From Candidatus Beckwithbacteria bacterium GW2011_GWC1_49_16 (GTDB lineage: Bacteria > Patescibacteriota > Microgenomatia > UBA1400 > CG1-02-47-37): a stretch of 64,000 nt of DNA. Below, piece by piece: positions 6,830 through 58,769 of this stretch; position 1 is the first letter of the stretch, and each line of letters begins with the position of its first letter. The stretch lies in the NCBI GenBank assembly GCA_001029675.1, contig CP011210.1, positions 948,891 through 1,012,890 of the forward strand, written 5' to 3'. Under the pieces are notes generated by a model. It ran no database searches. It was given only the letters and a program-made list of their open reading frames with translations, and was not told where the DNA came from. A program made the position numbers and the translations under genes.

Positions 6830-8068
6830 TTACTTCCAGGTCGGCAGCCAAAACCAATACTTAACCAAGTTTTTGGGGAGATGGACGGCGGTGTTAATTG
6901 GATAGAAGAAAAGAAAAAGAGCTACGACGATAGTCGTGTAGTAGATGATTAGTAGGCGACCTCGCTGGGGCGAGGTTTTTTGAAAGTCAATTAGCGCCCA
7001 GGCAATAATGATGGTAAGTAAGGATAGGGCCGGTAGGTAGTGGTGTAAGAAAAGAATTCTGGGGGAGAAAGACCAAGGCAACCAAAGAAGAAAATAACTG
7101 ACAAGAAGGTAGATCGTTGATCGTTGATGGCGGTAGAGGGCGTAGATCACGGCCACCAGTCCGCCCCAGAAAACGGCCGGGTTGCCCAGGTTATAAATGT
7201 TGGCGATGGTGTCTTTAGCATAGTCGACGTAAAACCAAACGGGACGAGCCAAAAGCGGCCACGTAAGGGCGGCGGTTTGGTAGTCGTGGGTGGCGGAAAG
7301 ACCGGTTTGGTACCAATAGATTTGCTGGTGGAGGTGGTAAAAGTCGATTAAGCTGTGGCCTTGAGCGAAAAACTGAAGGTAGGAAAGAAAGTAAATGACC
7401 ACAGGAATAATCAGTAAACTGTAAACCGTAATCAGTAACTTTTTAGGATTGGTAATTAAAACTTTTAGTTGGGGTAAAAGAAAAACGGCAAAGATGGGGT
7501 AGATGGCTAGGGCGGAGTGCTTGGTGGCAAGAGCCAAGCCGGTAAAGATGCCGGTGAGATAAAGATGTTTTAAGGTCCGACCTTTAAGAGCACGGTAAAA
7601 AAAGGTCAGCGCCAAAAGCATAAAGGTGGTGACGAAGATGTCGTTCATGGTGATTCTGGACATGGTGAGAGCGAGGCCGTCAAGCGAAAAAAAGGCGGCG
7701 GCCAAAAGCGACAGTTTAGGGTTTTTAAACAGGGCCTGGGCGAGAGTAAAAACCGCCGCCACGGCCAGGGTGCCGAAAAGGGCGCTGGGAAACCGCCAGG
7801 CAAAACTGTTATCGCCCAAAAGCTTGACCGAACCTGCCTGGATCAGTTTGGCCAGCGGCGGGTGAAGCCAATCATAAGCCGTCCCCTTTTCGGGGGGCTC
7901 GTGCCACCATTCGTAGCCGGCCGGATTATTTTCAGCGTGAGCCCGGACGGTGACGACATGATAGACTTCGTCAAAAACGTAGGCCGGCGGGATGCCAAGG
8001 CGGAAGACACGGACAACTAGGGTGAAAGTAAGTATTGCCCAAAATGCCTTGGTGTAAAATGACTTCAT
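6830..8068 (-). CDS. GT-C fold glycosyltransferase, PMT/ArnT-like (GT39/GT83 family)
   Basis: Polytopic membrane protein with a DE motif in the first periplasmic loop (YVFDEVYH). The start is probably the internal Met MKSFYTKAFW, which shares a CATG with the divergent gene at 8067. Confidence 0.6.
   Translation of the reverse strand: MKSFYTKAFWAILTFTLVVRVFRLGIPPAYVFDEVYHVVTVRAHAENNPAGYEWWHEPPEKGTAYDWLHPPLAKLIQAGSVKLLGDNSFAWRFPSALFGTLAVAAVFTLAQALFKNPKLSLLAAAFFSLDGLALTMSRITMNDIFVTTFMLLALTFFYRALKGRTLKHLYLTGIFTGLALATKHSALAIYPIFAVFLLPQLKVLITNPKKLLITVYSLLIIPVVIYFLSYLQFFAQGHSLIDFYHLHQQIYWYQTGLSATHDYQTAALTWPLLARPVWFYVDYAKDTIANIYNLGNPAVFWGGLVAVIYALYRHQRSTIYLLVSYFLLWLPWSFSPRILFLHHYLPALSLLTIIIAWALIDFQKTSPQRGRLLIIYYTTIVVALFLFFYPINTAVHLPKNLVKYWFWLPTWK
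7572..7584. repeat. Solo 13-mer AAGGTCCGACCTT inside the PMT-like glycosyltransferase coding sequence
   Basis: Exact 13/13 match to the repeat terminus, embedded as ...LKGRTLK... in the minus-strand protein. Confidence 0.7.
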
Positions 8069-9545
8069 GAGATTTATTGTAGCACTCACGTTTTGGGTAG
8101 TGGTATTTTGGTTAACTTTTAGCCAGACTATGTTCAGGCAAAATGACGGTGTTTTTGGCGCCTGCTCAAACTGCTGGGGCGATTGGTCGGCCCACACCAG
8201 CTACATGGCCTCGTTTGCCTTTGGGCGAAACTTTCCGCCCAGCTTACCGATTTTGGCCGGCGAAAAATTCAGCTATCCCTTTTTAGTGGATTTGATCACG
8301 GCCGGAGTGGTCAAGCTGGGAGTCGACTGGGTGAAAGCAATGGTGGCGGTCAGCTTAGTCACCGCGGTGGGGTTGGCGGGGGCGGTAATAGCTTTTGGCT
8401 GGAAGCTAACCGGTAAGTTTAAAATCGGGGTGGTAACGGCGCTGGTGTTTTTTTTAAACGGCGGCGTGGGCGAGTGGCAAAATCTTATTTCCTCCCAGGT
8501 CGTCCCCCAGCGGGGGCTGGCTCTGGGGATGACCATGGCCATCTGTGTCTACTGGTTGCTGTGGCAAAAGAAACTTTTTTGGGCGGGGGTGGTGGCAGGT
8601 TTGTTGCCGCTGGTTCACGCCCATTCGTTTATGGCGGTAGTCTTGGTGGCGGGGGGGCTAGGGGGCTGGCGAGTGATCAGAGCAAAAAATAAAACCAAGG
8701 AAATTTCAGCCTGGTTGGCTTTTGCTGTCCCGGCGTTGATTCTGGGCGGGGCGCAGGTGAGGTATTTTTACGCCGGGGTCTTGGGCCAAAACTTTGTCAG
8801 GTGGCAACCAGGCTGGCTGGCTGGCGGCGGCCTTTGGGGCTGGGCCTGGTTTTGGCTCAAAAACGCGGGGCTGGTCTTGGTTTTGGCAACAGCAGGCTGG
8901 TGGCTGGCTCCAAAAAATCTCCAGCGTTTTAGCCTGGTATTCTGGGGGTTGTTTTTTCTGGCTAACTTAGTCGTCTTTCAACCTTGGGATTGGGACAACA
9001 CTAAAATGTTGACCCACTGGCATTTAATGGCTTCGGTGCTGGCGGCCGGGGTAATCGTCAGGTTTTTTGACCATAAACGCTGGTTGGTAAAAATCTTAGG
9101 AGTGGGGGTGTTGGTTGCCAGTGTTTGGTTTGGATCGGTTAAGGTCGTGGCCATTGCCAAAGGGGAAAATCAGTATCGCTTTTGGGATAAAAACCAAATC
9201 GAAGCCGCGGCTTGGGTCAAAGACAATACCCCTCCCCGAGCAGTGTTTTTGACCGCTTCAAACCATGATCACTGGCTGCTTCCACTCACCGGCAGAAAAA
9301 TCGTCATCGGTTACCCGGGCTGGCTGTGGACTTACGGGCTTAACTACAGTCAGCGGGAAAAAGAAGTCGGAGAAATTTTTGGCGGCGGACAGACGGCAGA
9401 CAGCCTAATGGACAAATACCGGGTCGACTACGTCGTTTTAGGGCCGGAAGAAAAAAGACTCGACTCTATCAACCAGGAATATTTCCAAACCAAGTTGACT
9501 GAAGTTTACCAGCTTGAGGACTACCAAGTCTTTGCGGTCAACTAA
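8067..9545 (+). CDS. Polytopic integral membrane protein with C-terminal soluble domain (putative GT-C-type glycosyltransferase)
   Basis: About 11 predicted TM helices followed by a ~130-aa soluble C-terminal domain; sits in the glycosyltransferase neighbourhood. Confidence 0.4.
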   Translation: MRFIVALTFWVVVFWLTFSQTMFRQNDGVFGACSNCWGDWSAHTSYMASFAFGRNFPPSLPILAGEKFSYPFLVDLITAGVVKLGVDWVKAMVAVSLVTAVGLAGAVIAFGWKLTGKFKIGVVTALVFFLNGGVGEWQNLISSQVVPQRGLALGMTMAICVYWLLWQKKLFWAGVVAGLLPLVHAHSFMAVVLVAGGLGGWRVIRAKNKTKEISAWLAFAVPALILGGAQVRYFYAGVLGQNFVRWQPGWLAGGGLWGWAWFWLKNAGLVLVLATAGWWLAPKNLQRFSLVFWGLFFLANLVVFQPWDWDNTKMLTHWHLMASVLAAGVIVRFFDHKRWLVKILGVGVLVASVWFGSVKVVAIAKGENQYRFWDKNQIEAAAWVKDNTPPRAVFLTASNHDHWLLPLTGRKIVIGYPGWLWTYGLNYSQREKEVGEIFGGGQTADSLMDKYRVDYVVLGPEEKRLDSINQEYFQTKLTEVYQLEDYQVFAVN

Positions 9546-13639: not shown

Positions 13640-14785
13640 ATGATTATTAGAGACATTACCGCCAGCGACAGACTCAAGTTTAATGACGCGGTCGGGCATC
13701 CGCTGCAGGCTTTTGAGTGGGGGCAGTTCAGGCAGGAAACCGGAGTTAAAGTGATCAGGAAGGCCATTTTTGAAGGCGATAAATTGATCACTCCGGTTCA
13801 GGTGACCATTCATCAGCTGCCAAAAGTAAATTGGAAAATCGGCTATTTTCCTCGAGGGCCGATGCCGGACGAGGATCAGATGAAGTTATTAACCCAGATC
13901 GGCAAACAAGAAGGACTAATGATGATTAAACTCGAGCCGAATGTGGCAGCGGTGATAAATGACGGCGGGCCAAAAGTTCAGGCCTGGGAGACGGTAAGGA
14001 CGTTTTTGCGGTCTTTCGGGGCCAGGCCGGGAAGGTCGCTTTTTACCGATTATTCGTTTCAGCTGGATTTGACCGAGAGCGAGGAGAAACTTTTAAAAAA
14101 CATGCACTCTAAAACCCGCTACAACATCAGGCTGGCAGAAAGAAAGGGGGTCAAGGTGGCGGTGGATAATTCCCCGGCCAGCTTTGAATGGTTTCTGAAA
14201 CTTCTGTTTGAGCAAACGGTGGTGCGGCAGGGGTTTTATGCCCACACGCCGGATTATTTTAAAAAGCTGTGGGGGGTGTTGGCACCGGCCGGCATTGCCC
14301 ACCTGCTTCGGGCCTATGTGGGCGATAAAACTTTAGCGGTGTTTATGGTGTTTAAGTTTAATAACTGGTTGTATTACCCCTACGGAGCGTCGACGCGGGA
14401 AGAAAAGGAGCTAATGGCGCCAAACTTGGCTATGTGGGAAGCGATTCGCTTTGGCAAAAAGGAGGGGTGTAAGAAGTTTGACCTGTGGGGAGCGCTGTCG
14501 CCCACCCATAACAAAAATGATCCCTGGTACGGCTTTCACCGGTTTAAGGAAGGCTATGGAGGCAAGCTGGTCGGCTTTATCGGCAGCTACGATTTGGTGC
14601 TTGAACCCAAGAAATATTTGGCTTACCGGGCCGGTGACAGCTTACGCTGGGCATACCTTAGGACTGCGGCGGCGGCCAAAAGGATGCCGGGACAACTAAG
14701 CGGAGTTTTCTCTGATGTGCCAGAAAAGGTAGGTGAGGTCGCCAGCGACGCGATCAAGACTTTTGAAAAAGATGACCGATCTTAG
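13640..14785 (+). CDS. FemAB-family peptidoglycan peptide-bridge aminoacyltransferase
   Basis: Length and FemX/FemA-like architecture; the ...SKTRYNIR... core motif is repeated in the adjacent paralogue. Confidence 0.65.
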   Translation: MIIRDITASDRLKFNDAVGHPLQAFEWGQFRQETGVKVIRKAIFEGDKLITPVQVTIHQLPKVNWKIGYFPRGPMPDEDQMKLLTQIGKQEGLMMIKLEPNVAAVINDGGPKVQAWETVRTFLRSFGARPGRSLFTDYSFQLDLTESEEKLLKNMHSKTRYNIRLAERKGVKVAVDNSPASFEWFLKLLFEQTVVRQGFYAHTPDYFKKLWGVLAPAGIAHLLRAYVGDKTLAVFMVFKFNNWLYYPYGASTREEKELMAPNLAMWEAIRFGKKEGCKKFDLWGALSPTHNKNDPWYGFHRFKEGYGGKLVGFIGSYDLVLEPKKYLAYRAGDSLRWAYLRTAAAAKRMPGQLSGVFSDVPEKVGEVASDAIKTFEKDDRS

Positions 14786-15644
14786 GCAAGCTCGGGCTTA
14801 TTGGCGATACATGAAAAGCTTAGGCTGGCGGGTGGTCGACGGCGCCTTTGTCAAAAAACTCCCCTTTTTAGCTTTGAGCCTGGTCAAAATCCAAAGGCCG
14901 GAGCGTCAACCTAATCTTGCCGCGCTGAAAAAATTTCGCCCCATCTACATTAGCTACGAACCAGCGGTCAACCACAAACCCCCTGCCGGTTTCCGCCCGG
15001 GGTCACCCCTTTTGCCGTCAAGAACCATTTGGCTTGATTTGAGAAAGAGCCAGAAAAAACTTTTACAAGAAATGCGCCCCAAAACCCGCTACAATATTAA
15101 AAAATTACGGATTACGGATTACGGATTACGGATTACTCAAGGCAGTCAGCTAAGCGACGATCAACTCGCTGCTTTTTACCAAATTTACCGGGAAAACGCT
15201 AAAAAGCAAAGATTTTGGGGAGCAAGCTTTACTCAACTGAAGTCGTTGGCCACCTGTTTTGGTAAAAAGGCTTATTTAATCATTGCCAGACGGATGGCGC
15301 AGGCAGGGGAAAGCCGAAGGCAGGGTTTGGCTGGCAATGATGTCATTGGCGGGCTTTTAATTCTCGTTCACGACCGCGTGGCGTATTACTCCCACAACGC
15401 GGCCACCAATGAAGGGCGCAGGCTCTTTGTTCCCACCATCTTAACTTGGGAGGCGATTAAGCTAGCCAAAAAACTTGGCTGTCATACTTTTGACTTTGAG
15501 GGTATTGACGACCCTCGCTTCCCGGTCACCCGCAAATGGACGGGGTTTTCTCGCTTCAAAAAAAGCTTTGGCGGTAAGGAGGTCAACTACCCCCAGGCTT
15601 TGGTAAAATGGCAAGTACCGTTGTATCGATACAATAGAACTTAA
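14772..15644 (+). CDS. FemAB-family aminoacyltransferase, second copy
   Basis: Paralogous to the previous gene (RPKTRYNIKK vs SKTRYNIRL; FKKSFGG vs FKEGYGG). The start is taken at the internal Met MTDLRQ to avoid a 53-nt overlap. Contains the heptanucleotide repeat listed separately. Confidence 0.6.
   Translation: MTDLRQARAYWRYMKSLGWRVVDGAFVKKLPFLALSLVKIQRPERQPNLAALKKFRPIYISYEPAVNHKPPAGFRPGSPLLPSRTIWLDLRKSQKKLLQEMRPKTRYNIKKLRITDYGLRITQGSQLSDDQLAAFYQIYRENAKKQRFWGASFTQLKSLATCFGKKAYLIIARRMAQAGESRRQGLAGNDVIGGLLILVHDRVAYYSHNAATNEGRRLFVPTILTWEAIKLAKKLGCHTFDFEGIDDPRFPVTRKWTGFSRFKKSFGGKEVNYPQALVKWQVPLYRYNRT
15104..15136 (+). repeat. Tandem heptanucleotide repeat (ATTACGG)x4.7 inside the femAB-2 coding region
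   Basis: Direct reading: attacgg attacgg attacgg attacgg attac, translated as ...LRITDYGLRITQ... Confidence 0.85.
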
Positions 15645-16102
15645 TGATTGTGGCCTTGGAAAACATCAGGAGTCTTTATAACGTCGGGGCGATTTTAAGA
15701 AGCGCCAGCTTTTTTGGAGTGAGCGAGGTATTTTTGGTGGGGGTAACGGGGTCGAGGAAAATCGGCGGCCAAAGGTGGCTTCACGAAGGGTTAGCCAAAA
15801 CCGCTTTGGGAGCAGAATGGCAGTTACAGATCAAAATCTTGAAAGACAGCCAGAAATTGATTGATCTTGCCAAGAAGAACGGTTTGAAACTGGTAGTAGT
15901 GGAGCAAACGGCGGGGGCAACTCCCCTGTCAAGCTTCCGGCCGGGCAAAAACATGGTCTTGGTCTTTGGCAACGAGGTAACTGGCGTCAGTCAAAAAGTT
16001 TTGGCGGCGGCAGACAAGGTGGTAGAAATCCCCCGACGGGGCAAAAAAACTTCTTTAAATGTCGCCGTGGCGGCCGGAATTGTTTTAAGTCGATTGGGGT
16101 AG
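15644..16102 (+). CDS. SpoU/TrmH-family RNA 2'-O-methyltransferase
   Basis: SPOUT motifs: LYNVGAILRSA...LVFGNEVTGVS...SLNVAVAAGIVL. Confidence 0.8.
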   Translation: MIVALENIRSLYNVGAILRSASFFGVSEVFLVGVTGSRKIGGQRWLHEGLAKTALGAEWQLQIKILKDSQKLIDLAKKNGLKLVVVEQTAGATPLSSFRPGKNMVLVFGNEVTGVSQKVLAAADKVVEIPRRGKKTSLNVAVAAGIVLSRLG

Positions 16103-19100
16103 GTCCTGCCTGTCGGTAGGCAGACCCAGGGGCCAGCAGTGGCGGCGGTATTCGCAGCGAAGACAATGGCGTTGATAGTCGGTGGTGCGGGCAAAGCGGT
16201 GGCGGCGAATGGCTTTCATCGAAGACTTGATGGTGGTCATCAATTTGGCTACCTGATCGTCTGGAATGTCAAAGCTTCGTTTGACAAACTTGGTCTTTTT
16301 TAGGCCGGACTCGACAAAATCCAGCTCGGCTTCTAAGACTTTGTAGCTTAGGCGCGGATCAGCAGCAAAAAGAAGCCTGTAGAAAACCAGCTGACGAAAA
16401 AGGTCGCCCGAAGAAGTTTTGGTCTGGCCCAAAATGTCGTTAGCGCTTTTAGTCGGCCCGGTTTTGTAGTCGGTGACCTTGATGGTCTTTTTGGTTTTAT
16501 CGATTAAATCAACCCGGTCGATTTTGCCGGATAAGGGGATGTCGTCCAGGTAGGGCTTGGAGTAAAAACCGCCAAAGCGCAATTCTACGGCCAACGGCTT
16601 GGTCATCTCTTGATGGTAGTAGCGGTAGTAGGCGGCAAGGGCGTTGACGCCTTTATCAATAAAATCGGCGTGTCTCACCGGAGTTAAAACTTCACTACCT
16701 AAAGCTTTCTTAAACTGGCTTAATAAAAATTCCTTGGCGGGCAAGCGGTTGGTTTTGAGGAAGCGGCGGTAGAATATTTCCAAAGCCTTATGGACGGCGG
16801 TGCCAAAAGATAAGTAGGCTTGTTTGGCCCGGGGGACACGAATGAGGTTGTTTAGCTTGAATTTATAGCTGCAGGCCAGATAGGTGTTTAGGGCCGTAGC
16901 CGAGAGTTTAAAGTCTTTTAAAATGAGGTTGAGAAAATCACTTTCTTTGACGGACGGGGTTACCTGGGGCAGGGGTTTTAAGAGTTTGGTTAGGGCCTGT
17001 TTGGCCTGTTTAGTTAATTGGGGTGAGACGGGTTCAAGGTATTTTTGAGGAATTTCGGAAACAAACATGGAGGGGACGGCTTCTTTGCCGGTGACGGAAC
17101 CCGAGTAGCGGTCGGCGTAAGTAACGCAGACTTTTTTGCGGGCGCGGGTTAGCCCCACGTAAAACAGCCGCCTTTCGTCTTCATTTTTCTCTTTTTTTTG
17201 AAGATCGGTGAAGCTTAAGATCCCTTGGGGAAGTTTGATTAACTCCCGGGTGCGGTTGTTGCCCCATTTTTTATCGATAGCCCGATAAATAAAGACGTAG
17301 TCCCATTCCCTCCCCTTGGCTTTGTGGACGGTAGATAGGGTGACGGCGTTGGTTTTTATGTCCAGATCCTGCTCGACGACGCTCAAACGGTTTTGTTCCA
17401 TCAACTCAAGGGCTTTAATGAAACCAACCAAGTTGAGGCTGTGGTCGGCTTGGTTTAAACTTTTGACCTCGGCAAAAAGCGAGTTTAAACGGTTTAGCTT
17501 TTCGACGCTATCGGGCAAAGTCTCGAGCCAGCTTAAAAACCCCGACTGCTTTAAAACCATTTCGAAAAACTGGCTGAAGGTTTTTTCGGCGTCCAGCTTT
17601 CTCCAATCAGAAAGCTTGCCAATAAACTTAGTGATTTTGGAGCCGGATTTGAGCTTTAATTTTTTAAATTGGGGCGAGAGAATAAAGTCCACCAGATTGG
17701 TGTCGGCTTGGGCGACGGCCCGGGAAAGTTTTAAGATATCCAGGGCGTCTAATTTCAAAAACTGATAGTTTAACAGGGTGAATAAATCAAGGTCGTCACC
17801 CGCGCCTCCGCCGGCGTCGCTGATCACTTTCAAAAGGAGCAAAAACTGGTTTACTACCGGGTCGATTAAGACGTTGCCGCCGCCTTCTATGTCCAAACTC
17901 ACCCCAAACTTGGTGAGCATTTCTGCCAGCGTCCCGGCGTCGGCGTTGTGGCGAAAAAGAACGGCGATACTCTCTGGTTTGGTACCTGATTTGATCAGCC
18001 GGTCTATCTCCCGGGCGAGCCAAAAGGTTTCCAGAGTTTCCGAAGGAAATCTGACCAAAGACAGCTTTTGCTCTTTGAATTTACCTTGGGATTTTAATGT
18101 GGTGGTGGCTTTTTTGAGCTGGAGCTGGTTTTTTTTGATGACGGCGGCGGAGGCATCCAGGATGGTTTGAGTGGAACGGTAGTTTTGCGCCAGTTCAATC
18201 ACTTGGGCTTGGGGGAAAAGATTGTTGAAGGCGATAAAGTTCTCGGTCGAAGCTCCTTGGAAGCGAAAAATTGAATTATGAACTACCACATTGTTGGCTA
18301 CAAAATTGTGGCTAGGCGGTACTTCCAAGTCATAAACATTGATGGTTTTTATTTTCTTCTCGCGTTTAATGACTTTATCGTAGATAACCTTATGCCTTCT
18401 AACCACAGGGAGGTAGTTGCCAACTAAAATATTGCCTGCTTGCATTATTCTTGAGGGGCGGTGCTGTATCCTGGTAGTTCCTAAAGGCGCCTTAATATCA
18501 ATAATTCCAGGGAGTTTTCTCTCAAGCTTTTCGGCAATTTTATACAATTGAGAGAAATCAGTGTTATTTAGTCTGAAGCCTTTACCGATATTTTTATTTC
18601 TAAGCTTAAATCCGAGCTTGTTAAGTTTTTTTATGATTTTTTTGTTTGAAGTTTGGATTCGTAGCTCATGAAGAATGGAGGGGGATTGTAGTAGTCCTTT
18701 TTTATCATATTTAGAGCGATAGTTTCTTGAACACATAACAAGGTTAATTTTGATTCTCCCGTCCCCCAAAGTGGTTGCATCTCGAATATAATGGGGTTGA
18801 TTAAGATTTACCCCGAGATCTTGAGCAAGTATGGCAGCATTTTTTTCTGTATCAAACTCTTGATACAGCTTTTTAAGCCACTTGCCAGTAATTGCGTTAT
18901 TTCTTTCTTGAAAAACAACCGTTGGGATTTTGTAGGTAAGCGATAAAACCATTTCACGGTATCTGGCTTCTGCTTCTGATTTGTGTGCTGACAGGCCAAT
19001 AATTTTATCGGCTCCTGCCTCAATTTTTAGTCTTACTGAAAGGCTTCTTGTAATGCCTAAACGCCAACCCAAGCTTTTTTTATACATGAGGTAAACATAC

Positions 19101-20185
19101 CAGATGTTAGTCATTTCTCTGGGCGGGATAAAACAGAACATTTTATGATTATCTGTAGTAGCTATTTTTTGACCTGACTCGGTTGTAAAAGTAATGAGCC
19201 TAACTTTTCTTTTTTGCTTGAAAACCCTTTTAACTTTAGCGTAAGAGGTGTAGCCTTTACCTACCGCGGTTAAAACTTCATCTCCGGCTTTAATCTTTTC
19301 GATGTTTTTAAGGCCTGATTTGGTGTTGATTTTGATGCCCGCCGGCAAACACTGGTTCGGGTCTCCGACAACAAAGACATTGGCCTGATCGCCCCAGTAG
19401 GAAGCCAGAAGTTGTAAAACCTGGTTTTGAGCCGAGTTGGTATCCTGGTACTCGTCAACTAAAAAATAAAGCAGGCGCTCCTGATGGGTTCTTAATATGT
19501 TGGTATCCTGCTTAAAAGCGACTGCCACAAAATTGATCATGTCTTCAAAGTCATAGCGGCCTTTTTGGGCGAGTAACTTTTGGTAGGTTTGATAAACCCG
19601 AGCCAGGTCGTAGTTTTTGTCCAGCGTTTTTCTAGCGTTTAATAAGGCGGTGGCGGAAAGTTTGTTCTTCTCTTTTACCAACGAGGCTTTCTCTTTTTTG
19701 ACGATGGCGGCAAAAGTGATCGGGCTGACGGCTTCTCTTTTGAGGTCTTTTATTGATTCTATTAGGCTTGGGGTGTAGTAGAGGGGCGAGTTGGCCGGCT
19801 TGATAGCTTTAAAACGGCCGTGAGACAAAATCTGGTTAAAAATATCCACCCTTTCCAGTTCGGAAAGAGGCTCAAGATTCAAAGAAATGGCAAAGCGGTC
19901 GGCAAATTCCTGGATGACCGAGGAGCAAAAAGAGTGAAAAGTGGAGATATTAACGTAATAGGCCGGTTGGCCGATAGTGGCAAGTAGCCTCTGGCGCATC
20001 TCTCTGGCGCCGGATTCGGTAAAAGTTAAAGCCAAAATGCCGTCGGGGGGAGTGTCGGTTTTTTTCAAGATGTAAGCGATGCGCTCGGCGATGATCTGGG
20101 TTTTGCCGGTGCCGGGGCCGGCGATGACCATGACCGGGCCTTCGATGGTAGTGACGGCTTTAACTTGGGCCGGGTTTAGCTTCAT
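16085..20185 (-). CDS. UvrD-family helicase fused to a C-terminal Cas4/RecB-like PD-(D/E)xK nuclease with a four-Cys cluster, interrupted by an intein
   Basis: N-terminal Walker A AGPGTGKT and DEYQDTN. Motif III is split (VVGDPNQ | intein | SIFRFQGAS). The C-terminal nuclease carries Cys residues at YLACSYKF and CLRCEYRRHC. Confidence 0.8.
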   Translation of the reverse strand: MKLNPAQVKAVTTIEGPVMVIAGPGTGKTQIIAERIAYILKKTDTPPDGILALTFTESGAREMRQRLLATIGQPAYYVNISTFHSFCSSVIQEFADRFAISLNLEPLSELERVDIFNQILSHGRFKAIKPANSPLYYTPSLIESIKDLKREAVSPITFAAIVKKEKASLVKEKNKLSATALLNARKTLDKNYDLARVYQTYQKLLAQKGRYDFEDMINFVAVAFKQDTNILRTHQERLLYFLVDEYQDTNSAQNQVLQLLASYWGDQANVFVVGDPNQCLPAGIKINTKSGLKNIEKIKAGDEVLTAVGKGYTSYAKVKRVFKQKRKVRLITFTTESGQKIATTDNHKMFCFIPPREMTNIWYVYLMYKKSLGWRLGITRSLSVRLKIEAGADKIIGLSAHKSEAEARYREMVLSLTYKIPTVVFQERNNAITGKWLKKLYQEFDTEKNAAILAQDLGVNLNQPHYIRDATTLGDGRIKINLVMCSRNYRSKYDKKGLLQSPSILHELRIQTSNKKIIKKLNKLGFKLRNKNIGKGFRLNNTDFSQLYKIAEKLERKLPGIIDIKAPLGTTRIQHRPSRIMQAGNILVGNYLPVVRRHKVIYDKVIKREKKIKTINVYDLEVPPSHNFVANNVVVHNSIFRFQGASTENFIAFNNLFPQAQVIELAQNYRSTQTILDASAAVIKKNQLQLKKATTTLKSQGKFKEQKLSLVRFPSETLETFWLAREIDRLIKSGTKPESIAVLFRHNADAGTLAEMLTKFGVSLDIEGGGNVLIDPVVNQFLLLLKVISDAGGGAGDDLDLFTLLNYQFLKLDALDILKLSRAVAQADTNLVDFILSPQFKKLKLKSGSKITKFIGKLSDWRKLDAEKTFSQFFEMVLKQSGFLSWLETLPDSVEKLNRLNSLFAEVKSLNQADHSLNLVGFIKALELMEQNRLSVVEQDLDIKTNAVTLSTVHKAKGREWDYVFIYRAIDKKWGNNRTRELIKLPQGILSFTDLQKKEKNEDERRLFYVGLTRARKKVCVTYADRYSGSVTGKEAVPSMFVSEIPQKYLEPVSPQLTKQAKQALTKLLKPLPQVTPSVKESDFLNLILKDFKLSATALNTYLACSYKFKLNNLIRVPRAKQAYLSFGTAVHKALEIFYRRFLKTNRLPAKEFLLSQFKKALGSEVLTPVRHADFIDKGVNALAAYYRYYHQEMTKPLAVELRFGGFYSKPYLDDIPLSGKIDRVDLIDKTKKTIKVTDYKTGPTKSANDILGQTKTSSGDLFRQLVFYRLLFAADPRLSYKVLEAELDFVESGLKKTKFVKRSFDIPDDQVAKLMTTIKSSMKAIRRHRFARTTDYQRHCLRCEYRRHCWPLGLPTDRQDLPQST
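18275..19351 (-). mobile_element. Intein (~359 aa) inserted in helicase motif III of the UvrD-family protein
   Basis: Starts with Cys (CLPAGIKINTKSG...). Block B TxxH is TTDNH, ~67 aa in. Block F/G is NVYDLEVPPSHNFVANNVVVHN followed by the +1 Ser. Removing it restores VGDPNQSIFRFQGAS. Confidence 0.8.
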
Positions 20186-45659: not shown

Positions 45660-47954
45660 ATGTTGAATCTGTGGCTGGCGAAACAAGCCAAAAAATATGG
45701 CGACAAAGAAGCGATAGTTTTTGATGATTTTGACAGCGGGAAAAAATGGCGGGTGTCTTACCGGCAACTTAATAGCCTCACGGCTAACCTGGCGGTTTAT
45801 TTGCGTCATTTGGGGCTTGCGCCCGGACAAAGGTTGGCGTTTGCTTTTGAAAACAGCTTAGAAGTAATCCTAATTAATTTGGCTGCCTGGCGGGCGGGAT
45901 TGGTAACGGTGCCTTTGGACATCACCCGGGACACGCCGGAAAGAAAAGCTTACAAATTAAAGTTTACCGAAACAGAAGTTTTGTTTACTAGAAAAGATGA
46001 AAAAAGCGTCCAAGAAAATCGCTGGCTAAAGAGCCGGCTTAAAAACCTGGAAGTAATTGAACTGGCAGACTTTAGTGAATTGAAAGCCAGGCTAGTCAAG
46101 TCCGACAGCAGCCCAGATTTTCAAACCGACCCCGATAGAGATGCTTTAATTTTGTTTACCTCGGGGACGACCGCTTTGCCCAAAGGCGCCAGGCTGACGT
46201 TAAACAATTTGTGGGCCAACGCCCAGTCAATTGTCGACTGGTTGAGGTTTGGCCAGCGCGACCGGTGGCAGGTGGTCTTACCGCTGCATCACATTAACTC
46301 GACTACTTTTGTCAACACCGCGCTGATGGCCGGCGGGACGGTGGTGTTGCTGCCGCGCTACTCCAAGTCGCGTTTTTGGCAGGCTTTGGCGGAAAATCGG
46401 GTGACGGGGACTTCGATCGTACCGACGATCGCCTACGACATGTTAAGCGAAGAAAAGGCTTTTTTGAAATATAAAAGCAAGCTCAAACAAGTACGGCGGA
46501 TCCAGATCGGCTCGGCGCCGGTCCAGCCGACGGTGGTAGAAGAGTTTATGGCTAAATTCAAAATTCCTTTGATTCAGGGTTATGGCCAGACGGAAACCTC
46601 GCTTCGGAGCACGGGAGTGCCGATGGCTTTGACCGCTTCACAATATAAAAAAATTAGACAGCTTAATTCTTTGGGGACTGAACTAAAACACACCCAGGTG
46701 ACCGTGCTTGACCGGGCGGGCCGAGAGGTTGGCGAGGGCAAGGTGGGTGAGATCGTTGTCCGCGGCCCGGTGGTGATGAAAGGGTATTTGAAAAACCCGG
46801 CCGCCAACAAAGAGGCTTTCCAGTTTGGCTGGTTTCACTCGGGCGACACCGGCTACTGGCGGCGGCTTTTCGGCCGGAAGTTTTTCTTTCTTAAAGGACG
46901 AACCAAAGAAATCATCCACAAAGGCGGAGTCTTGGTCTCGCCTTTGGCAGTGGAAAATGCTCTGCTTAAGGCTTATCCTACCCTAAAACAGGTTTACGCC
47001 GTTGGCTTCCCTGATGCCCGCATGGGTGAAAGAATTGGTCTGGTGGCGGTAGCTAAAAACGAGAAAACATTAGCAAAGATTTTGGCCGACGCCGCTGCCG
47101 GGAAGGTTGCCGGCTTGAGCCGGTACGAAGCGCCGAGTGCGCTAGTTGCCATTGACGAAAGCAACTTGCCCAAGACGTCGACGGGCAAGGTACAACGGAT
47201 CAAGCTTAAAGAAAAATTTGCGGTCAAACTTTTGGAACGATCCAGAACCATAACTGAAAGCGATCAATACCGCTTTAAACTCTTGGGGCCGGAAGAAACT
47301 TCCCTTTTGCGTCAAGCACTGGCTATCAACAACCAGCGCTGGGGCAAAAAGCTTAATAGTAATTTGGCCGAATTTAGAAAGCGGGCAGAAAACGGTTTGC
47401 TTTTGGCAGCTATCGATAAAAAATCCCATCGGGTGGTCGGCAGCGTAGCCGCACTTCAATTAAATAAACAGTTACTTCCCCCCACTTGGAGAAAGGCTAC
47501 CGCCGCCGGCACGCTTAAAAACCACGACTATAAAGGAGATAGTTTAGTCTGCGTCAGTATTTCGGCGGCGCAAACCCGTGACTCGAAACCCGTAACTCGA
47601 AACAGTCTTAAAATCCAAAAGACTAAGTTGACGCCAGCCAAACTCAAAGTCTATTTGACCAGCGATAAAGACAATATAGTCAGGTTCCACCGCAAGCCCA
47701 AAGGCGGATTTGGCCGCGGCGCCAGGCTCATCAAAGTTCTCCCCGGCGGAAGATTAGAAGACCAAGACTCGCTGGGCTACAACATTGTCTTTGAGTATCC
47801 AAAACTCACCCATCGACCCAGAATGAGCCAACAAGCGTCAATCGGAGTTCAACTAATTGAAGCGGCATTGATTTATGCCTATGAGCATAAAATCAAGCAT
47901 GTTTTGGCCTACTCGCGTCCGGCAGAGCTTAGCAAATATTTTAAAAAGGGCTAA
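45660..47954 (+). CDS. ANL-superfamily adenylate-forming enzyme (acyl-/aminoacyl-AMP ligase) with a ~250-aa C-terminal domain of unknown function
   Basis: LILFTSGTTALPKGARLT (the A3 motif) and GYGQTETS (the A5 motif); the residues after ~510 have no motif I recognise. Confidence 0.65.
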   Translation: MLNLWLAKQAKKYGDKEAIVFDDFDSGKKWRVSYRQLNSLTANLAVYLRHLGLAPGQRLAFAFENSLEVILINLAAWRAGLVTVPLDITRDTPERKAYKLKFTETEVLFTRKDEKSVQENRWLKSRLKNLEVIELADFSELKARLVKSDSSPDFQTDPDRDALILFTSGTTALPKGARLTLNNLWANAQSIVDWLRFGQRDRWQVVLPLHHINSTTFVNTALMAGGTVVLLPRYSKSRFWQALAENRVTGTSIVPTIAYDMLSEEKAFLKYKSKLKQVRRIQIGSAPVQPTVVEEFMAKFKIPLIQGYGQTETSLRSTGVPMALTASQYKKIRQLNSLGTELKHTQVTVLDRAGREVGEGKVGEIVVRGPVVMKGYLKNPAANKEAFQFGWFHSGDTGYWRRLFGRKFFFLKGRTKEIIHKGGVLVSPLAVENALLKAYPTLKQVYAVGFPDARMGERIGLVAVAKNEKTLAKILADAAAGKVAGLSRYEAPSALVAIDESNLPKTSTGKVQRIKLKEKFAVKLLERSRTITESDQYRFKLLGPEETSLLRQALAINNQRWGKKLNSNLAEFRKRAENGLLLAAIDKKSHRVVGSVAALQLNKQLLPPTWRKATAAGTLKNHDYKGDSLVCVSISAAQTRDSKPVTRNSLKIQKTKLTPAKLKVYLTSDKDNIVRFHRKPKGGFGRGARLIKVLPGGRLEDQDSLGYNIVFEYPKLTHRPRMSQQASIGVQLIEAALIYAYEHKIKHVLAYSRPAELSKYFKKG

Positions 47955-55670: not shown

Positions 55671-58600
55671 TTACTTCTCAATAAAGTCGACGGTGAAGAC
55701 ACGGTCGTAGGAAAGATCGGACTCGAAGGTGGTTACTTGGGCAGAAGTGAGGGCCCGGGGAGAAGTGGAGGTGGCTAGTAAGAAAGATGGATGGTTGACG
55801 ATGACCTTGACCGGATCGGCGATGATGCCCGGCTGCTTGGGAATGACGACCGCCAGTTTGCCCTCGCGCGACCCCTCTTGGGGAGCGGTAGCCAGCTTAC
55901 CCGGCAAGCGGTAGGTCATCTCCACCGCCAAGGTGTGCTTGACCGGAACGGTAACGGGGAAGCCTAAAACGAGTTTGTCACCCACCTGGGAGGCATCGAT
56001 GTCGGCCTCGGGGTCAAGCTTGGTCTCGCCTACTTTGACCGAGATGACTCGCGAACCGGCGGGAATGTAAGCTCTTAAATAGCTTCGGTAATTTCCTCCG
56101 GGCCAGGCGTCCGCCGGGCTTTGGTTTTGGTAGGTAATGGTAGCAGTAGATAGAATTTCCTTAGTCTTTAGAATGGTCAGCTGGTATTCCAGCTCTCGGT
56201 TTAAGAAGTAGTTGGCTTTATTGATGCCCAAGTTGGCCTCGACGGGATAAAAGTAGTCGACGATCGGGGCGGGGTTGGCGGCGATTAAGGGGGCATAGAG
56301 AGCGCCGGCCCAGTTTTGTTCTAAAAGAATTTTTTGGCTGCCCTCGTCGTGGAGATTGAGAAGAATTTGTTTTTGGGTCATGGCGGTTTCGAGGGCTTGG
56401 GTAAACTGGAGTAGTTCGCCGGCAGAGGCGTTTTGGGCTCGGTCGAAAAGTTCACGGGCAAGAGACCCCAAAAAGTCTTTCTTTTGAGTTGAGCCGGGGA
56501 AAAAGTCGATTTCAGTGCGGTATTCGGCACGCTCAAACAAGTTGGTGGCGGTGATTTCCTCGTTGAAGTCGGGCAGTTTAACCGGGCCGGTGACTTTAAG
56601 AAATTCTCTGGCGGCCGGGAGGTTGACGGCGATCACCCCATCGACGTTTCTGCCGGTGGATTTGTTGAGAAACCACTCGGCGCGGGGGCCGGAGACGGTA
56701 AAATCGGGGTCCCAGTTCGAGTCCCTAAAAAACCACGAGTTCTGGCCTAAAAACTCCTTGAGGGGTTCGGGGGGTTCGACAAAACCAGACAGCTGGCCGT
56801 CGGCGGCGTAGATGTCTTCGACAGTGAAGTCTAAAAGCTTCCCTTTTTCAAAGGTGAGTAAACCATAGGAACCGATGAATCCCCCTGTAGGACGGATCTC
56901 GGCGTTGTTTTGAAACAAAATTAGGTAGGTTTTTTTGGAGTTTTGAGCGATTAGATCGGGAACCAACGGCAGCATCACCCGAGCCTGGTTGACTTTTTGG
57001 CGAATGGCGGGAAAGTCGGTGGTCAACTGGTGGAGTTTTTGGCTTAAAGGAGTAGACAGGTTCAGACTCAACTGCCTGCCGCTTTGGAGTTCGGACTCAA
57101 CAAAAGAGAGTTCGGAGTAGGCTTGGTCGAGGTTAACCTTGATACGATTTAGGGCTAAATCGAGGTTGCCGTCTTGGTGCTTGAGGACGATTGAGGCTAA
57201 CAAGGTACCGTCTTGGGCGGCGGCGGCTAGGTGGAGAGTCCCCTGGCTTAGTTTGCCGCCGATGAACAGGAGTTGATCAAGGTTGGTAGCCAACTCCCCT
57301 GCCCCAACTGCGCTTAAGACCGCGTGGCGGCTTCGCAGTAACCGGCGGGAAGATTGAAAGTGTCTGTCGGCCGAGGTGGTGAGTTTTTCCAGTCGGTCCA
57401 GGTGGGTAAGGTCGGTCGATGAGGCAGCCTGGTTTAAGTAACTGACACCCAAAAGGGTATGGCCTATCATTAAAACCAGGGGTCCGAGGACAAGAACCAG
57501 GGCGAGAGCGAGGGTGAGGACGGCGGTTTTGGTCCGACGAGAAAGTTTGCTGAAGCCGGGAAATTGGGGAAGCTTGGGAAGTTTGGAAAGTTTGGGATGT
57601 TTGGGAAGTTTGAATTTAGGCAAGGCCGGAAACTTAGGTATAGTAATATTTTTTTTGGGAGCATCGGGGAAGGCTGGCTTAATCCCCAACTCTTCCAAAG
57701 AAAGCTGGTCTTCCCGGCGGGGTGTTTCTGGGGGGGGTGGTTGTTTAATTTCTTCAGGTAGTTTGGCCTGGCCGCTTTGGAGCCATTCTAAGGTGCGGGT
57801 AATCCCCTCTTCAAGGTCTACCTTGGATGTCCAACCTAGGTTTTGTTGAGAATTTAAGGTTTCCTTAGGAAGGCTCATTGGGCCGAGAGTGTCTTCGCCT
57901 TTGACGAAGTCAATTTTCAAACCCTTGTCGGCTAAAACCTCTTTGATTTTGTAGGCCACGTTTAGAAGAGTAATTTTCTCCGGATTTAGCAGGGTGTAGA
58001 TCTCGCCGGTGGAGCTTTGGGTGAACATGGCCTTGGTGAGGCCGTAGACGATATCGGATACAAAAGTGGGGTAAAGAGGGGTGAGGCCGTTGCCGGGGAT
58101 TTCCAGGGTATCTCCCTTTTTGGCGGCAAGAAAGAGTTTGGCCAGACCGGTGCCGGTGGCAAGATCCATGCGGGGGCCGTAGACGTGGGCGAGGCGGACG
58201 ACGCGGGCGTCAAGCTGGTGGCGGTTGACGTATTCAAAAGTTAGAGCCTCGCTGAAACGCTTGGCTTCGTGGTGAGAATAGAGTTCTTGGGCGACGTGGT
58301 CGGAGCCAAAATAATGAGTCAAGTCGCTAGTGGCGAGGCGAGCGGAAAAAATATCGGTGGTGGAGGCGAGAAGAAACTTAGCTTGGTGTTTTTTGGCTAT
58401 TTCTAAAAGCTCGCGGCTGCCCAGGGAGTTGACCAAAAGCGTGTCCAGGCTGACGTCGAGGCCATTGACATAGGCTTCGATGCCGGCCAAGTGAAAGACG
58501 TAGTCGACCTGGGGCAGATTGGTTTTTAAAGGTTTGTTTAGGTCGTGCTCAAAAAAAACAAAGTTCTTTTGGTCAAGCAAGTGGTTGAGGTTTTGTTTTT

Positions 58601-58769
58601 TGCCGCTTAAAAAATTGTCGATGCCATAGACCAAACAGTTTTGCAAAATTAAAGCGTCGCAGAGATGGGAGCCAATAAAGCCGGCGGCGCCGGCGACCAG
58701 GGCGGTGGGGAGGTGAGAAGACGACTTAACTTGTTGGACAGATTTTTTGGCAGGCATAGCTTGAACCAA
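55671..58769 (-). CDS. Fusion protein: N-terminal NAD-dependent epimerase/dehydratase (SDR), central TM and KLPKLP-repeat linker, C-terminal DUF4012-like domain
   Basis: GAAGFIGSHL Rossmann motif; KFPALPKFKLPKHPKLSKLPKLPQFPGF repeats; ...PTGGFIGSYGLL... in the C-terminal half. Confidence 0.55.
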   Translation of the reverse strand: MVQAMPAKKSVQQVKSSSHLPTALVAGAAGFIGSHLCDALILQNCLVYGIDNFLSGKKQNLNHLLDQKNFVFFEHDLNKPLKTNLPQVDYVFHLAGIEAYVNGLDVSLDTLLVNSLGSRELLEIAKKHQAKFLLASTTDIFSARLATSDLTHYFGSDHVAQELYSHHEAKRFSEALTFEYVNRHQLDARVVRLAHVYGPRMDLATGTGLAKLFLAAKKGDTLEIPGNGLTPLYPTFVSDIVYGLTKAMFTQSSTGEIYTLLNPEKITLLNVAYKIKEVLADKGLKIDFVKGEDTLGPMSLPKETLNSQQNLGWTSKVDLEEGITRTLEWLQSGQAKLPEEIKQPPPPETPRREDQLSLEELGIKPAFPDAPKKNITIPKFPALPKFKLPKHPKLSKLPKLPQFPGFSKLSRRTKTAVLTLALALVLVLGPLVLMIGHTLLGVSYLNQAASSTDLTHLDRLEKLTTSADRHFQSSRRLLRSRHAVLSAVGAGELATNLDQLLFIGGKLSQGTLHLAAAAQDGTLLASIVLKHQDGNLDLALNRIKVNLDQAYSELSFVESELQSGRQLSLNLSTPLSQKLHQLTTDFPAIRQKVNQARVMLPLVPDLIAQNSKKTYLILFQNNAEIRPTGGFIGSYGLLTFEKGKLLDFTVEDIYAADGQLSGFVEPPEPLKEFLGQNSWFFRDSNWDPDFTVSGPRAEWFLNKSTGRNVDGVIAVNLPAAREFLKVTGPVKLPDFNEEITATNLFERAEYRTEIDFFPGSTQKKDFLGSLARELFDRAQNASAGELLQFTQALETAMTQKQILLNLHDEGSQKILLEQNWAGALYAPLIAANPAPIVDYFYPVEANLGINKANYFLNRELEYQLTILKTKEILSTATITYQNQSPADAWPGGNYRSYLRAYIPAGSRVISVKVGETKLDPEADIDASQVGDKLVLGFPVTVPVKHTLAVEMTYRLPGKLATAPQEGSREGKLAVVIPKQPGIIADPVKVIVNHPSFLLATSTSPRALTSAQVTTFESDLSYDRVFTVDFIEK

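Follow-up and report, generated by a model that had tools for sequence, protein, structure and literature searches.

The second of two adjacent FemAB-family genes of Candidatus Beckwithbacteria bacterium GW2011_GWC1_49_16, a groundwater bacterium of the Microgenomates (candidate phyla radiation), contains a perfect tandem array of a heptanucleotide, (ATTACGG)x4.7, at positions 15104-15136 (plus strand) of the window, that is, of the whole stretch of 64,000 nucleotides (nt) of contig CP011210.1 that was analysed. This tract is a coding heptanucleotide simple sequence repeat (SSR), a known kind of repeat. Tracts of the same period stand at the same codons of many orthologues, with units that change from lineage to lineage; period 7 dominates the tandem arrays of related Microgenomates loci, most of which lie in coding regions, and consensus assemblies contain no copy-number variants of the tract. 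On balance we consider it somewhat probable that the array is a coding microsatellite in a tolerant linker, belonging to a clade-wide class generated by slippage, and that it represents a latent frameshift site rather than a demonstrated switch.

The raw sequence at this place reads as an AAAAA leader followed by four complete ATTACGG units, a partial ATTAC and TCAAGG. Tandem Repeats Finder (TRF) describes the same 33-nt tract with period 7, 4.7 copies, 100% matches, 0 indels and a score of 66, which is not equalled by any other perfect (100%-match) array in the window. Since a period-7 self-match scan of 758 kb of block-shuffled related DNA returned 0 tracts, chance is excluded for the FemAB2 tract. 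The array begins at the third base of K111 and ends at the second base of T122 (codons 111-122) and encodes (K)LRITDYGLRIT in the context KK-LRITDYGLRIT-QG, in frame, so that the position, perfection and peptide given in the initial annotation of this DNA are confirmed. That annotation had also held that the present copy number keeps the gene open and that gain or loss of one unit would truncate its product, and both statements are borne out by allele modelling: loss of one unit gives 124 amino acids (aa) and gain of one gives 145, against the 290 aa of the present allele, while loss or gain of two gives 138 and 131 aa, respectively; changes by three units stay in frame (283 aa for loss, 297 aa for gain). 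Because FemAB2 is cut short when one or two units slip, the tract is a latent frameshift hot spot, although in the populations sampled it does not act like a switch that turns on and off at high frequency.

The host gene, femAB2 (14772-15644, plus strand), starts at ATG 14772 and encodes 290 aa; a mechanically chosen alternative start, GTG 14733, gives an open reading frame (ORF) of 303 aa. Its product matches Pfam FemAB (PF02388) with 59.8 bits, the cut-off being 24, and PF13480 with 35 bits, and is by this family membership a predicted aminoacyl-tRNA-dependent peptidoglycan bridge transferase. The exact 290-aa protein is present in public collections under names such as 'pentaglycine interpeptide bridge formation protein, Candidatus Beckwithbacteria'; the contigs that carry it reach ~0.55 Mb, and a 277-aa version with an alternative start is found on a 1.05-Mb contig; homologues are named by their sources as FemA/FemB family or lipid II:glycine glycyltransferase. 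An AlphaFold2 (AF2) model built from 65 homologues (predicted local distance difference test, pLDDT, 92; predicted template modelling score, pTM, 0.89) has the Fem-type fold according to Foldseek, the best matches being Staphylococcus aureus FemX 6snr (E 9.5e-16), Weissella viridescens FemX 4ii9 and 1ne9, and FemA 1lrz. In this model helix 103-112 ends within the tract, which then passes through the loop 113-119 and into the first part of strand 120-123. The same helix covers the KTRYNIKK motif (K104-K111; 15081-15104, plus strand), identified in homologue alignments, which directly precedes the tract and anchors it on its 5' side with its AAAAAA end; among 27 aligned sequences T105, R106 and Y107 do not vary, and N108 does not vary among 65.

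Another region of FemAB2, residues ~172-190 (15287-15345), is a species-specific insertion of ~17-20 aa (ARRMAQAGESRRQGLAGNDVIGG) that has a pLDDT of 62-79 and is missing from most homologues. A frameshifting deletion is located in it in a population variant (P0126 / L175), and at the same site the insertion of the relative L170 is longer and contains a GSDP..GSDP repeat.

Tracts at the same codons in FemAB2 relatives

The closest FemAB2 homologue outside the species shows 61% identity, and orthologues at 40-61% identity carry heptanucleotide tracts of 4-5 copies at the same codons. Among the related loci (designated here by L and a number) the site is occupied by (AATTACG)x5.1 in L002, (AAATCAC)x4.4 in L005, (AAATACG)x4.4 plus degenerate units in L168, an AATTTTC-like array in L008, (CGAAATT)x4.0 in L012, (TCAAAAC)x5.1 in L027 and (CTCACAA)x4.6 in L097. 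When periodicity was measured as the number of offset-7 matches in the best 28-nt window 3' of the KTRYNIKK motif, 17 of 48 distinct FemAB2 sites scored 17-27, and FemAB1-type sites scored 4-16, except those of the distant FemAB homologues L136 and L141, which have tracts of their own. The initial annotation had allowed for a one-off duplication absent from relatives. Such a recent event, or an assembly artefact, in either case without wider meaning, could be suggested by the perfection of the tract and by the lack of any relative above 61% identity with which to date it. This explanation is refuted by the orthologous tracts; moreover, independent assemblies, made from several samples and with several pipelines, all have an identical tract, and assembly collapse is no concern because a 33-nt array is far below the assembly k-mers given in contig names (k127, k141). 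We therefore give it practically no credence.

In aligned DNA, the arrays of the window, L002, L005 and L094 stand in one register, with AAnAA followed by four to five copies of ATYACRR and then AGG, and the substitutions that are particular to a lineage (GG in the window, GA in L002, AA in L005 and L094) are common to all the copies of each array. This sharing by all copies indicates that the FemAB2 tracts evolve in concert, with lineage-specific units (ATTACGG, ATTACGA, ATCACAA). A neighbour-joining tree contains one clean tract-bearing clade (L168, L002, L005, L094), other tract bearers being scattered among tract-less relatives, a pattern that fits an old tract subject to decay and turnover; for distant lineages, recurrent birth at a permissive site would be an alternative origin.

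The peptides encoded by the tracts are wholly different between lineages (LRITDYG, SQITNNK, SHNSQLT, EIRNSKF). This comparative result contradicts an explanation in which protein-level selection for the repeated peptide LRIT-DYG-LRIT causes the periodicity, for which the 7-residue period of the peptide, and the position of its second LRIT in a beta strand of the model, could be invoked. A 7-residue period, however, needs no 7-nt period in three codon phases, and we find the explanation highly improbable. The strict maintenance of period 7 across lineages could also be due to a functional nucleic-acid element, for instance a phased DNA or mRNA protein-binding array that regulates the FemAB1-FemAB2-SpoU operon, as start-adjacent heptamer arrays have been proposed to be regulator binding sites in Beggiatoaceae (PMC4679880). 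But the unit varies freely between lineages (ATTACGG, ATCACAA, CTCACAA, GAAATTC), a search of Rfam found no family matching at the FemAB2 tract, and the tracts occupy many internal positions of unrelated genes at inconsistent distances from the start, all of which makes an element of this kind very unlikely.

The FemAB2 linker is an indel hot spot, since L168 has ~8 units and a linker longer by 7 aa, which amounts to an in-frame +3-unit allele, L094 has an additional perfect 18-nt duplication, and L005 has a 48-nt insertion within its array. No relative (0) is out of frame at its own tract; in L024 and L096, FemAB2 is frameshifted away from the tract. In a further relative with 61% identity, L170 (JGI Ga0395776_0821753, 500-560), the frame is shifted by a 23-nt deletion in which the TRYN motif and most of the tract are lost; the locus, on a 1-kb contig, is a pseudogene or else an error of assembly. 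In all, FemAB2 is disrupted in three relatives, for which assembly error is possible.

Linkers with and without a tract can be of the same length. The Woesebacteria-type linker has 12 aa in L097, with a perfect tract, and in the tract-less L021 and L029, and the linkers of L012 (tract) and L016 (tract-less), whose proteins are 61% identical, are equal in length, have common flanks and differ in the middle 12 nt alone. The tract as a simple insertion of 21 nt, a possibility that holds at FemAB1 and Mur-ligase sites, was rejected for FemAB2 on account of these equal-length linkers.

In-frame GC-rich palindromic insertions are present in the FemAB2 linker of L005 (4414-4449) and L042 (2827-2887, within an insertion of ~120 nt at 2820-2945), with arms of 21 and 26 nt, in genes that are otherwise AT-rich. 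We take them to resemble the in-frame palindromic elements of Rickettsia. At the same linker position L016 has a 12-nt GC-rich patch.

Period-7 arrays in Microgenomates loci and their possible origin

A scan for arrays of any period in all the fetched Microgenomates loci plus the window (758 kb) rendered, at a threshold of 24/28, 24 tracts of period 7, five of period 14, one each of periods 8, 9 and 12, and none of periods 4, 5, 6, 10, 11, 13 or 15; lowering the threshold to 22/28 raised the period-7 tracts to 54. In an independent run of TRF, arrays with at least 3.5 copies and at least 85% matches were distributed similarly, with 28 of period 7, four of period 8, one of period 6 and no others, so that these 758 kb show the excess of 7-nt arrays over other unit lengths that characterises the prokaryotic heptanucleotide class of longer-unit SSRs. 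Most tracts (32 of 36 after trimming) are in open frame inside ORFs of 228-820 codons, and the tracts are thus not predominantly intergenic and start-adjacent in the manner described for TAACTGA arrays. Among the sites are FemAB N-termini, where the tract is in the loop that follows 'EP', FemAB1 of L028 and L030 (7 aa longer than FemAB1 of the window), UvrD before VTLMT in L019 and L021, two positions of Mur ligase (one in L142, the other in L140 and L154), a GT4 glycosyltransferase and an NIF3 protein, and examples of the arrays, of ~4-6 copies, among loci L009-L175 are found at L142 2967-2997, L148 1443-1481, L136 1297-1330, L019 914-940 and L028 1389-1415. Orthologous sites again carry different units (AATCACG/AGCTACC; CACCGAA/CACCAAT; AAAATTC/GAAATCC). 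Copy numbers, as determined by TRF, cluster at 4.0-5.6, and at sites other than FemAB2 a tract adds a net 7-8 aa, compatible with a gain of three units.

The units resemble each other in being A-rich, with T followed by C or AC. Such units are what AT-rich composition and avoidance of stop codons in all three phases predict: in 35 of the 40 units observed no phase contains a stop, and the likeliest AT-rich necklaces without stops (AAAATAC, AAAATTC, AAATTAC and others) are of the kinds observed. It bears on another explanation, an active or templated writing of heptamer arrays, by a mobile mini-cassette or multi-copy break repair, in which units are shared within a genome and ordinary slippage has no part. 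The window itself offers a suggestive case, as it contains a second, degenerate heptanucleotide tract at 7408-7438 (minus strand; TRF period 7, 4.4 copies, 79% matches) within the ORF 6830-8197, which encodes a PMT-family glycosyltransferase (Pfam PMT, PMT_2). This tract consists of GTTACTG, ATTACGG, TTTACAG and TTTACTG after an AAAAA leader and encodes KKLLITVYSLLII; it has the only ATTACGG of the window outside the FemAB2 tract, shares with the latter the leader and the unit NTTACNG, and is ~80% identical to it over 44 nt including the leader (manual count). Arrays of GTATCAA are likewise found at two non-homologous sites of L025, several units are shared by different genomes in which the genes that carry them are unrelated (GAAATTC in L012 and L142, GAAATCC in L141 and L154, AAAACTC in L027 and L136), and the TAACTGA arrays of Beggiatoaceae are suspected to be mobile (PMC4679880). 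Against it, the overall test for genome-specific units, in spite of the suggestive cases in the window and L025, gave no significant sharing (2 of 12 within-genome pairs within one mismatch versus 10% between genomes, P = 0.34), the likeness of units is that expected from composition and stop-codon avoidance, and orthologous tracts are in register with their flanks, which fits vertical descent. A templated writing of the arrays thus appears quite unlikely.

Two groups of heptanucleotide repeats described in prokaryotes can be compared with these arrays. In the survey of prokaryotic SSRs with units of 5-11 nt by Mrazek, Guo and Shah (2007), of which PMC4679880 gives a summary, heptanucleotides were the most abundant longer-unit class, units of a multiple of three were most often those inside genes, and a 7-nt polymerase-contact length favouring slippage was proposed. 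The TAACTGA direct repeats of marine Beggiatoaceae, cyanobacteria and some Bacteroidetes form many sets of 2-6 copies genome-wide, with one heptamer per genome that contains forward-strand stop codons; they are mostly intergenic, directly upstream of starts, with a few in ORFs, in variable surface loops, and indels in steps of 7 nt distinguish close strains (PMC4679880). The Microgenomates loci share with the former the dominance of period 7 and with the latter the short heptamer sets scattered across loci and, in the case of a few TAACTGA sets, a position within ORFs. They differ from the surveyed class in that their non-triplet 7-nt arrays are mostly coding (32 of 36), and from the TAACTGA repeats in the variety of their units, most of which are free of stops, and in their coding location; sequence diversity and a mainly coding location set them apart from both groups. 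The survey predates the genomes of the candidate phyla radiation (CPR). On the whole, the FemAB2 tract fits better with the heptanucleotide longer-unit SSR class, and partly with the TAACTGA arrays, than with the switches considered below.

The mechanism that we infer from these comparisons would combine slippage or template switching with a selective filter. Replication slippage or template switching at a 7-nt offset would make the tract and repeatedly re-homogenise it, and selection would let through only those outcomes that keep the frame, have no stop in any of the three phases and can be accommodated by a surface segment tolerant of changes in sequence. The array would spread through the free linker (~11 codons) and stall at ~33 nt, or 4.7 units, where it meets the constrained flanks, KTRYNIKK on the left and Q/RG on the right. 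A patch copied from a 7-nt offset and then returned to register would give linkers of equal length with and without a tract, and the linkers of L097, L021 and L029 and of L012 and L016 suggest that homogenisation may in this way bypass out-of-frame intermediates.

Several points weigh against a slippage-generated microsatellite as set out here. No slippage event (0) was seen directly, the mechanism being drawn from comparative patterns, and the evidence comes from consensus assemblies. Neutral slippage in an array of 4-5 units does not easily account for near-perfect periodicity across lineages whose proteins share ~50% identity, and selection for mutability could be involved instead. In distant lineages, an ancient origin with turnover is not cleanly separable from recurrent birth. 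The loci sampled are, in addition, biased to peptidoglycan gene clusters, so that the density of arrays holds for these loci.

Read conservatively, the tract is a well-documented coding microsatellite and a warning against calling phase variation from sequence only. The comparative result is the weightier one: among the tandem repeats of these small genomes, 7-nt arrays of non-triplet length prevail, and they are found in frame within core genes. Arrays that stand at the same codons across ~50%-identical lineages and change in concert offer a way to study slippage and selection on protein loops of CPR bacteria, and the period-7 pattern makes the preferred slippage length of ~7 nt, attributed to Mrazek et al. 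2007 in the summary cited above, testable. It can also be the case, although we propose this tentatively and would rather doubt it, that a strict 7-nt-offset process operates throughout the Microgenomates and that such core enzymes as FemAB, Mur ligase and UvrD have short heptanucleotide arrays written and rewritten by it into their tolerant loops, where they would persist at orthologous codons over deep divergence, changing in concert; the FemAB2 tract would then be one of many latent frameshift sites, some of them possibly low-frequency cell-wall switches in episymbionts.

Copy number and the possibility of switching

The comparison of copy numbers rests on consensus assemblies. The index of the collection places the exact 290-aa FemAB2 in 93 blocks, and reading covered 24 contigs; the standard FemAB2 arrangement is present on the 21-23 longest contigs, found via the neighbouring SpoU gene. 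LRITDYGLRIT is present in nine of nine members of the 90%-identity cluster of FemAB2, and the tract is identical in five of five DNA copies from independent assemblies (the window and four other loci, from at least three further assemblies), all with 4.7 units. Differences in length among the nine cluster members are due to alternative starts, to a scaffold N-gap or 55-nt upstream deletion (P0125) and to a downstream deletion (P0126), and because of these lesions the two short members, P0125 and P0126, were rejected as tract variants. Copy number is likewise invariant in a second species-level cluster that has its own tract (P0028, 18 members). None of 14 predicted products of -3 to +3 alleles (three start choices; 8 to 12 off-frame, 2 in-frame) was found among ~15 billion proteins, and no naturally occurring OFF allele was found among these or at the tracts of relatives. 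A search of 1.84 billion cluster representatives with the N-terminal 111 aa of FemAB2 (HMMER) gave 172 matches; the short ones, considered as OFF products, turned out to be contig-end fragments, adapter read-through (VSYTHLTLPTN) or chimeras, and the only lesion at the tract site, that of P0147 (the L170 locus), is the 23-nt deletion described above and not a unit slip. Copy number is thus fixed in the sampled populations, and the length heterogeneity for which the initial annotation had advised looking does not appear in these consensus sequences, whether in the 93 blocks, the nine cluster members, the five DNA copies or the 14 predicted alleles.

The closest functional analogue of the FemAB2 tract is that of NeuO, the polysialic-acid O-acetyltransferase of Escherichia coli K1, encoded by the CUS-3 prophage, whose gene contains a coding heptanucleotide repeat, 5'-AAGACTC-3' (PMC13001214). 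NeuO is ON only if the repeat count is a multiple of three; 64 genomes have 3-53 repeats and 65.6% of them are OFF, and in culture 93% of the lengths correspond to 21 repeats, 1.9% to 20 and 5.4% to 22 (PMC13001214). Both tracts consist of a 7-nt tandem unit, of non-triplet length, within the ORF of an envelope-modifying acyl- or aminoacyl-transferase (in FemAB2 by predicted function), where a change of one unit shifts the frame and the full-length product is made in only one residue class of copy number modulo 3. Their units are A-rich and stop-free, the AAAACTC of L027 and L136 being one base away from AAGACTC. The FemAB2 tract differs in having 4.7 units, with no variant or OFF allele in any assembly examined, and in being internal, after residue 111, rather than at the 5' end of the gene. 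In Haemophilus influenzae, heptanucleotide SSRs are found in the hmw1A/hmw2A promoter (TGAAAGA), in or near a TonB-dependent receptor gene (AACAACC) and inside hmw1A (AATTTTG), and in such tracts strains have anywhere from 1 to 38 copies of the unit, with an association to truncated ORFs (PMC2651432). The 7-nt unit and, in some tracts, an intragenic location with frameshift consequences are common to both organisms, whereas the FemAB2 tract shows no copy-number variation in assemblies. With regard to variation within populations, therefore, the FemAB2 tract behaves unlike those of NeuO and Haemophilus.

These comparisons bear on the proposal of the initial annotation that the tract is a candidate site of phase variation. 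What stands of it is that the unit is not a triplet, that slips truncate the protein and that the repeat is not a one-off; evidence of switching and copy-number variants in assemblies are both missing. A contingency locus, in which one-unit slips would reversibly switch FemAB2 and alter the interpeptide bridge of peptidoglycan, the tract being kept by second-order selection, would be consistent with truncation by one- or two-unit slips of a non-triplet unit and with a tract whose position is conserved while its unit sequence changes. This combination is known from contingency loci. FemAB2 also has the paralogue FemAB1 next to it, the relatives with FemAB2 broken elsewhere (L024, L096, L170) hint that it may be dispensable, and NeuO is a precedent for a coding heptanucleotide repeat acting as a switch (PMC13001214). 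On the other hand, there are 0 copy-number or off-frame variants in the examined assemblies of the species or of the 18-member P0028 cluster, no tract-bearing relative is off-frame at its own tract, the 4.7 units contrast with the range and the OFF frequency of NeuO, and identical-looking tracts are found in UvrD and Mur-ligase genes, which are unlikely contingency genes. We consequently regard a contingency locus as rather unlikely, and keep to a latent frameshift site in a coding microsatellite.

Were unit-length variants to be found in reads, this would be, as far as literature searches show, the first reported contingency locus of the CPR, and switching would affect peptidoglycan cross-bridges and could bear on phage and host interactions. 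Searches of full-text literature rendered no relevant paper linking phase variation with Patescibacteria or CPR and, among top-ranked results, none linking heptanucleotide repeats with them.

Neighbouring genes and other repeats of the window

The paralogue FemAB1 (381 aa; 13640-14785, plus strand), identified as an ORF with its Pfam match, is located directly upstream of FemAB2 and overlaps it by 14 nt. In this genome FemAB1 has no tract, and its orthologues in L028 and L030 have theirs at a site other than that of FemAB2. The order LytR-UvrD-FemAB1-FemAB2 is kept in L002 and L005, and the FemAB1-FemAB2 pair also in L008. Downstream, a gene for a SpoU-family RNA methyltransferase (15644-16102, plus strand; ORF and Pfam) is probably in the same operon as FemAB2, because its start overlaps the FemAB2 stop by 1 nt.

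Some further features of the window were noted. The region 16085-20185 (minus strand) encodes a 1366-aa UvrD/PD-(D/E)XK helicase-nuclease that is interrupted by an intein (Pfam Intein_splicing PF14890, PDDEXK_1). A 14-nt tandem duplication, AAACCCGTAACTCG x2.3 with 94% matches, is located at 47572-47603. Finally, within the ORF 55671-58769 (minus strand), a 9-nt repeat at 57558-57612, GGGAAGTTT x6.1 with 82% matches, encodes the proline/lysine-rich stretch PKFPALPKFKLPKHPKLSKLPKLPQFPGF in a protein of 1032 aa.

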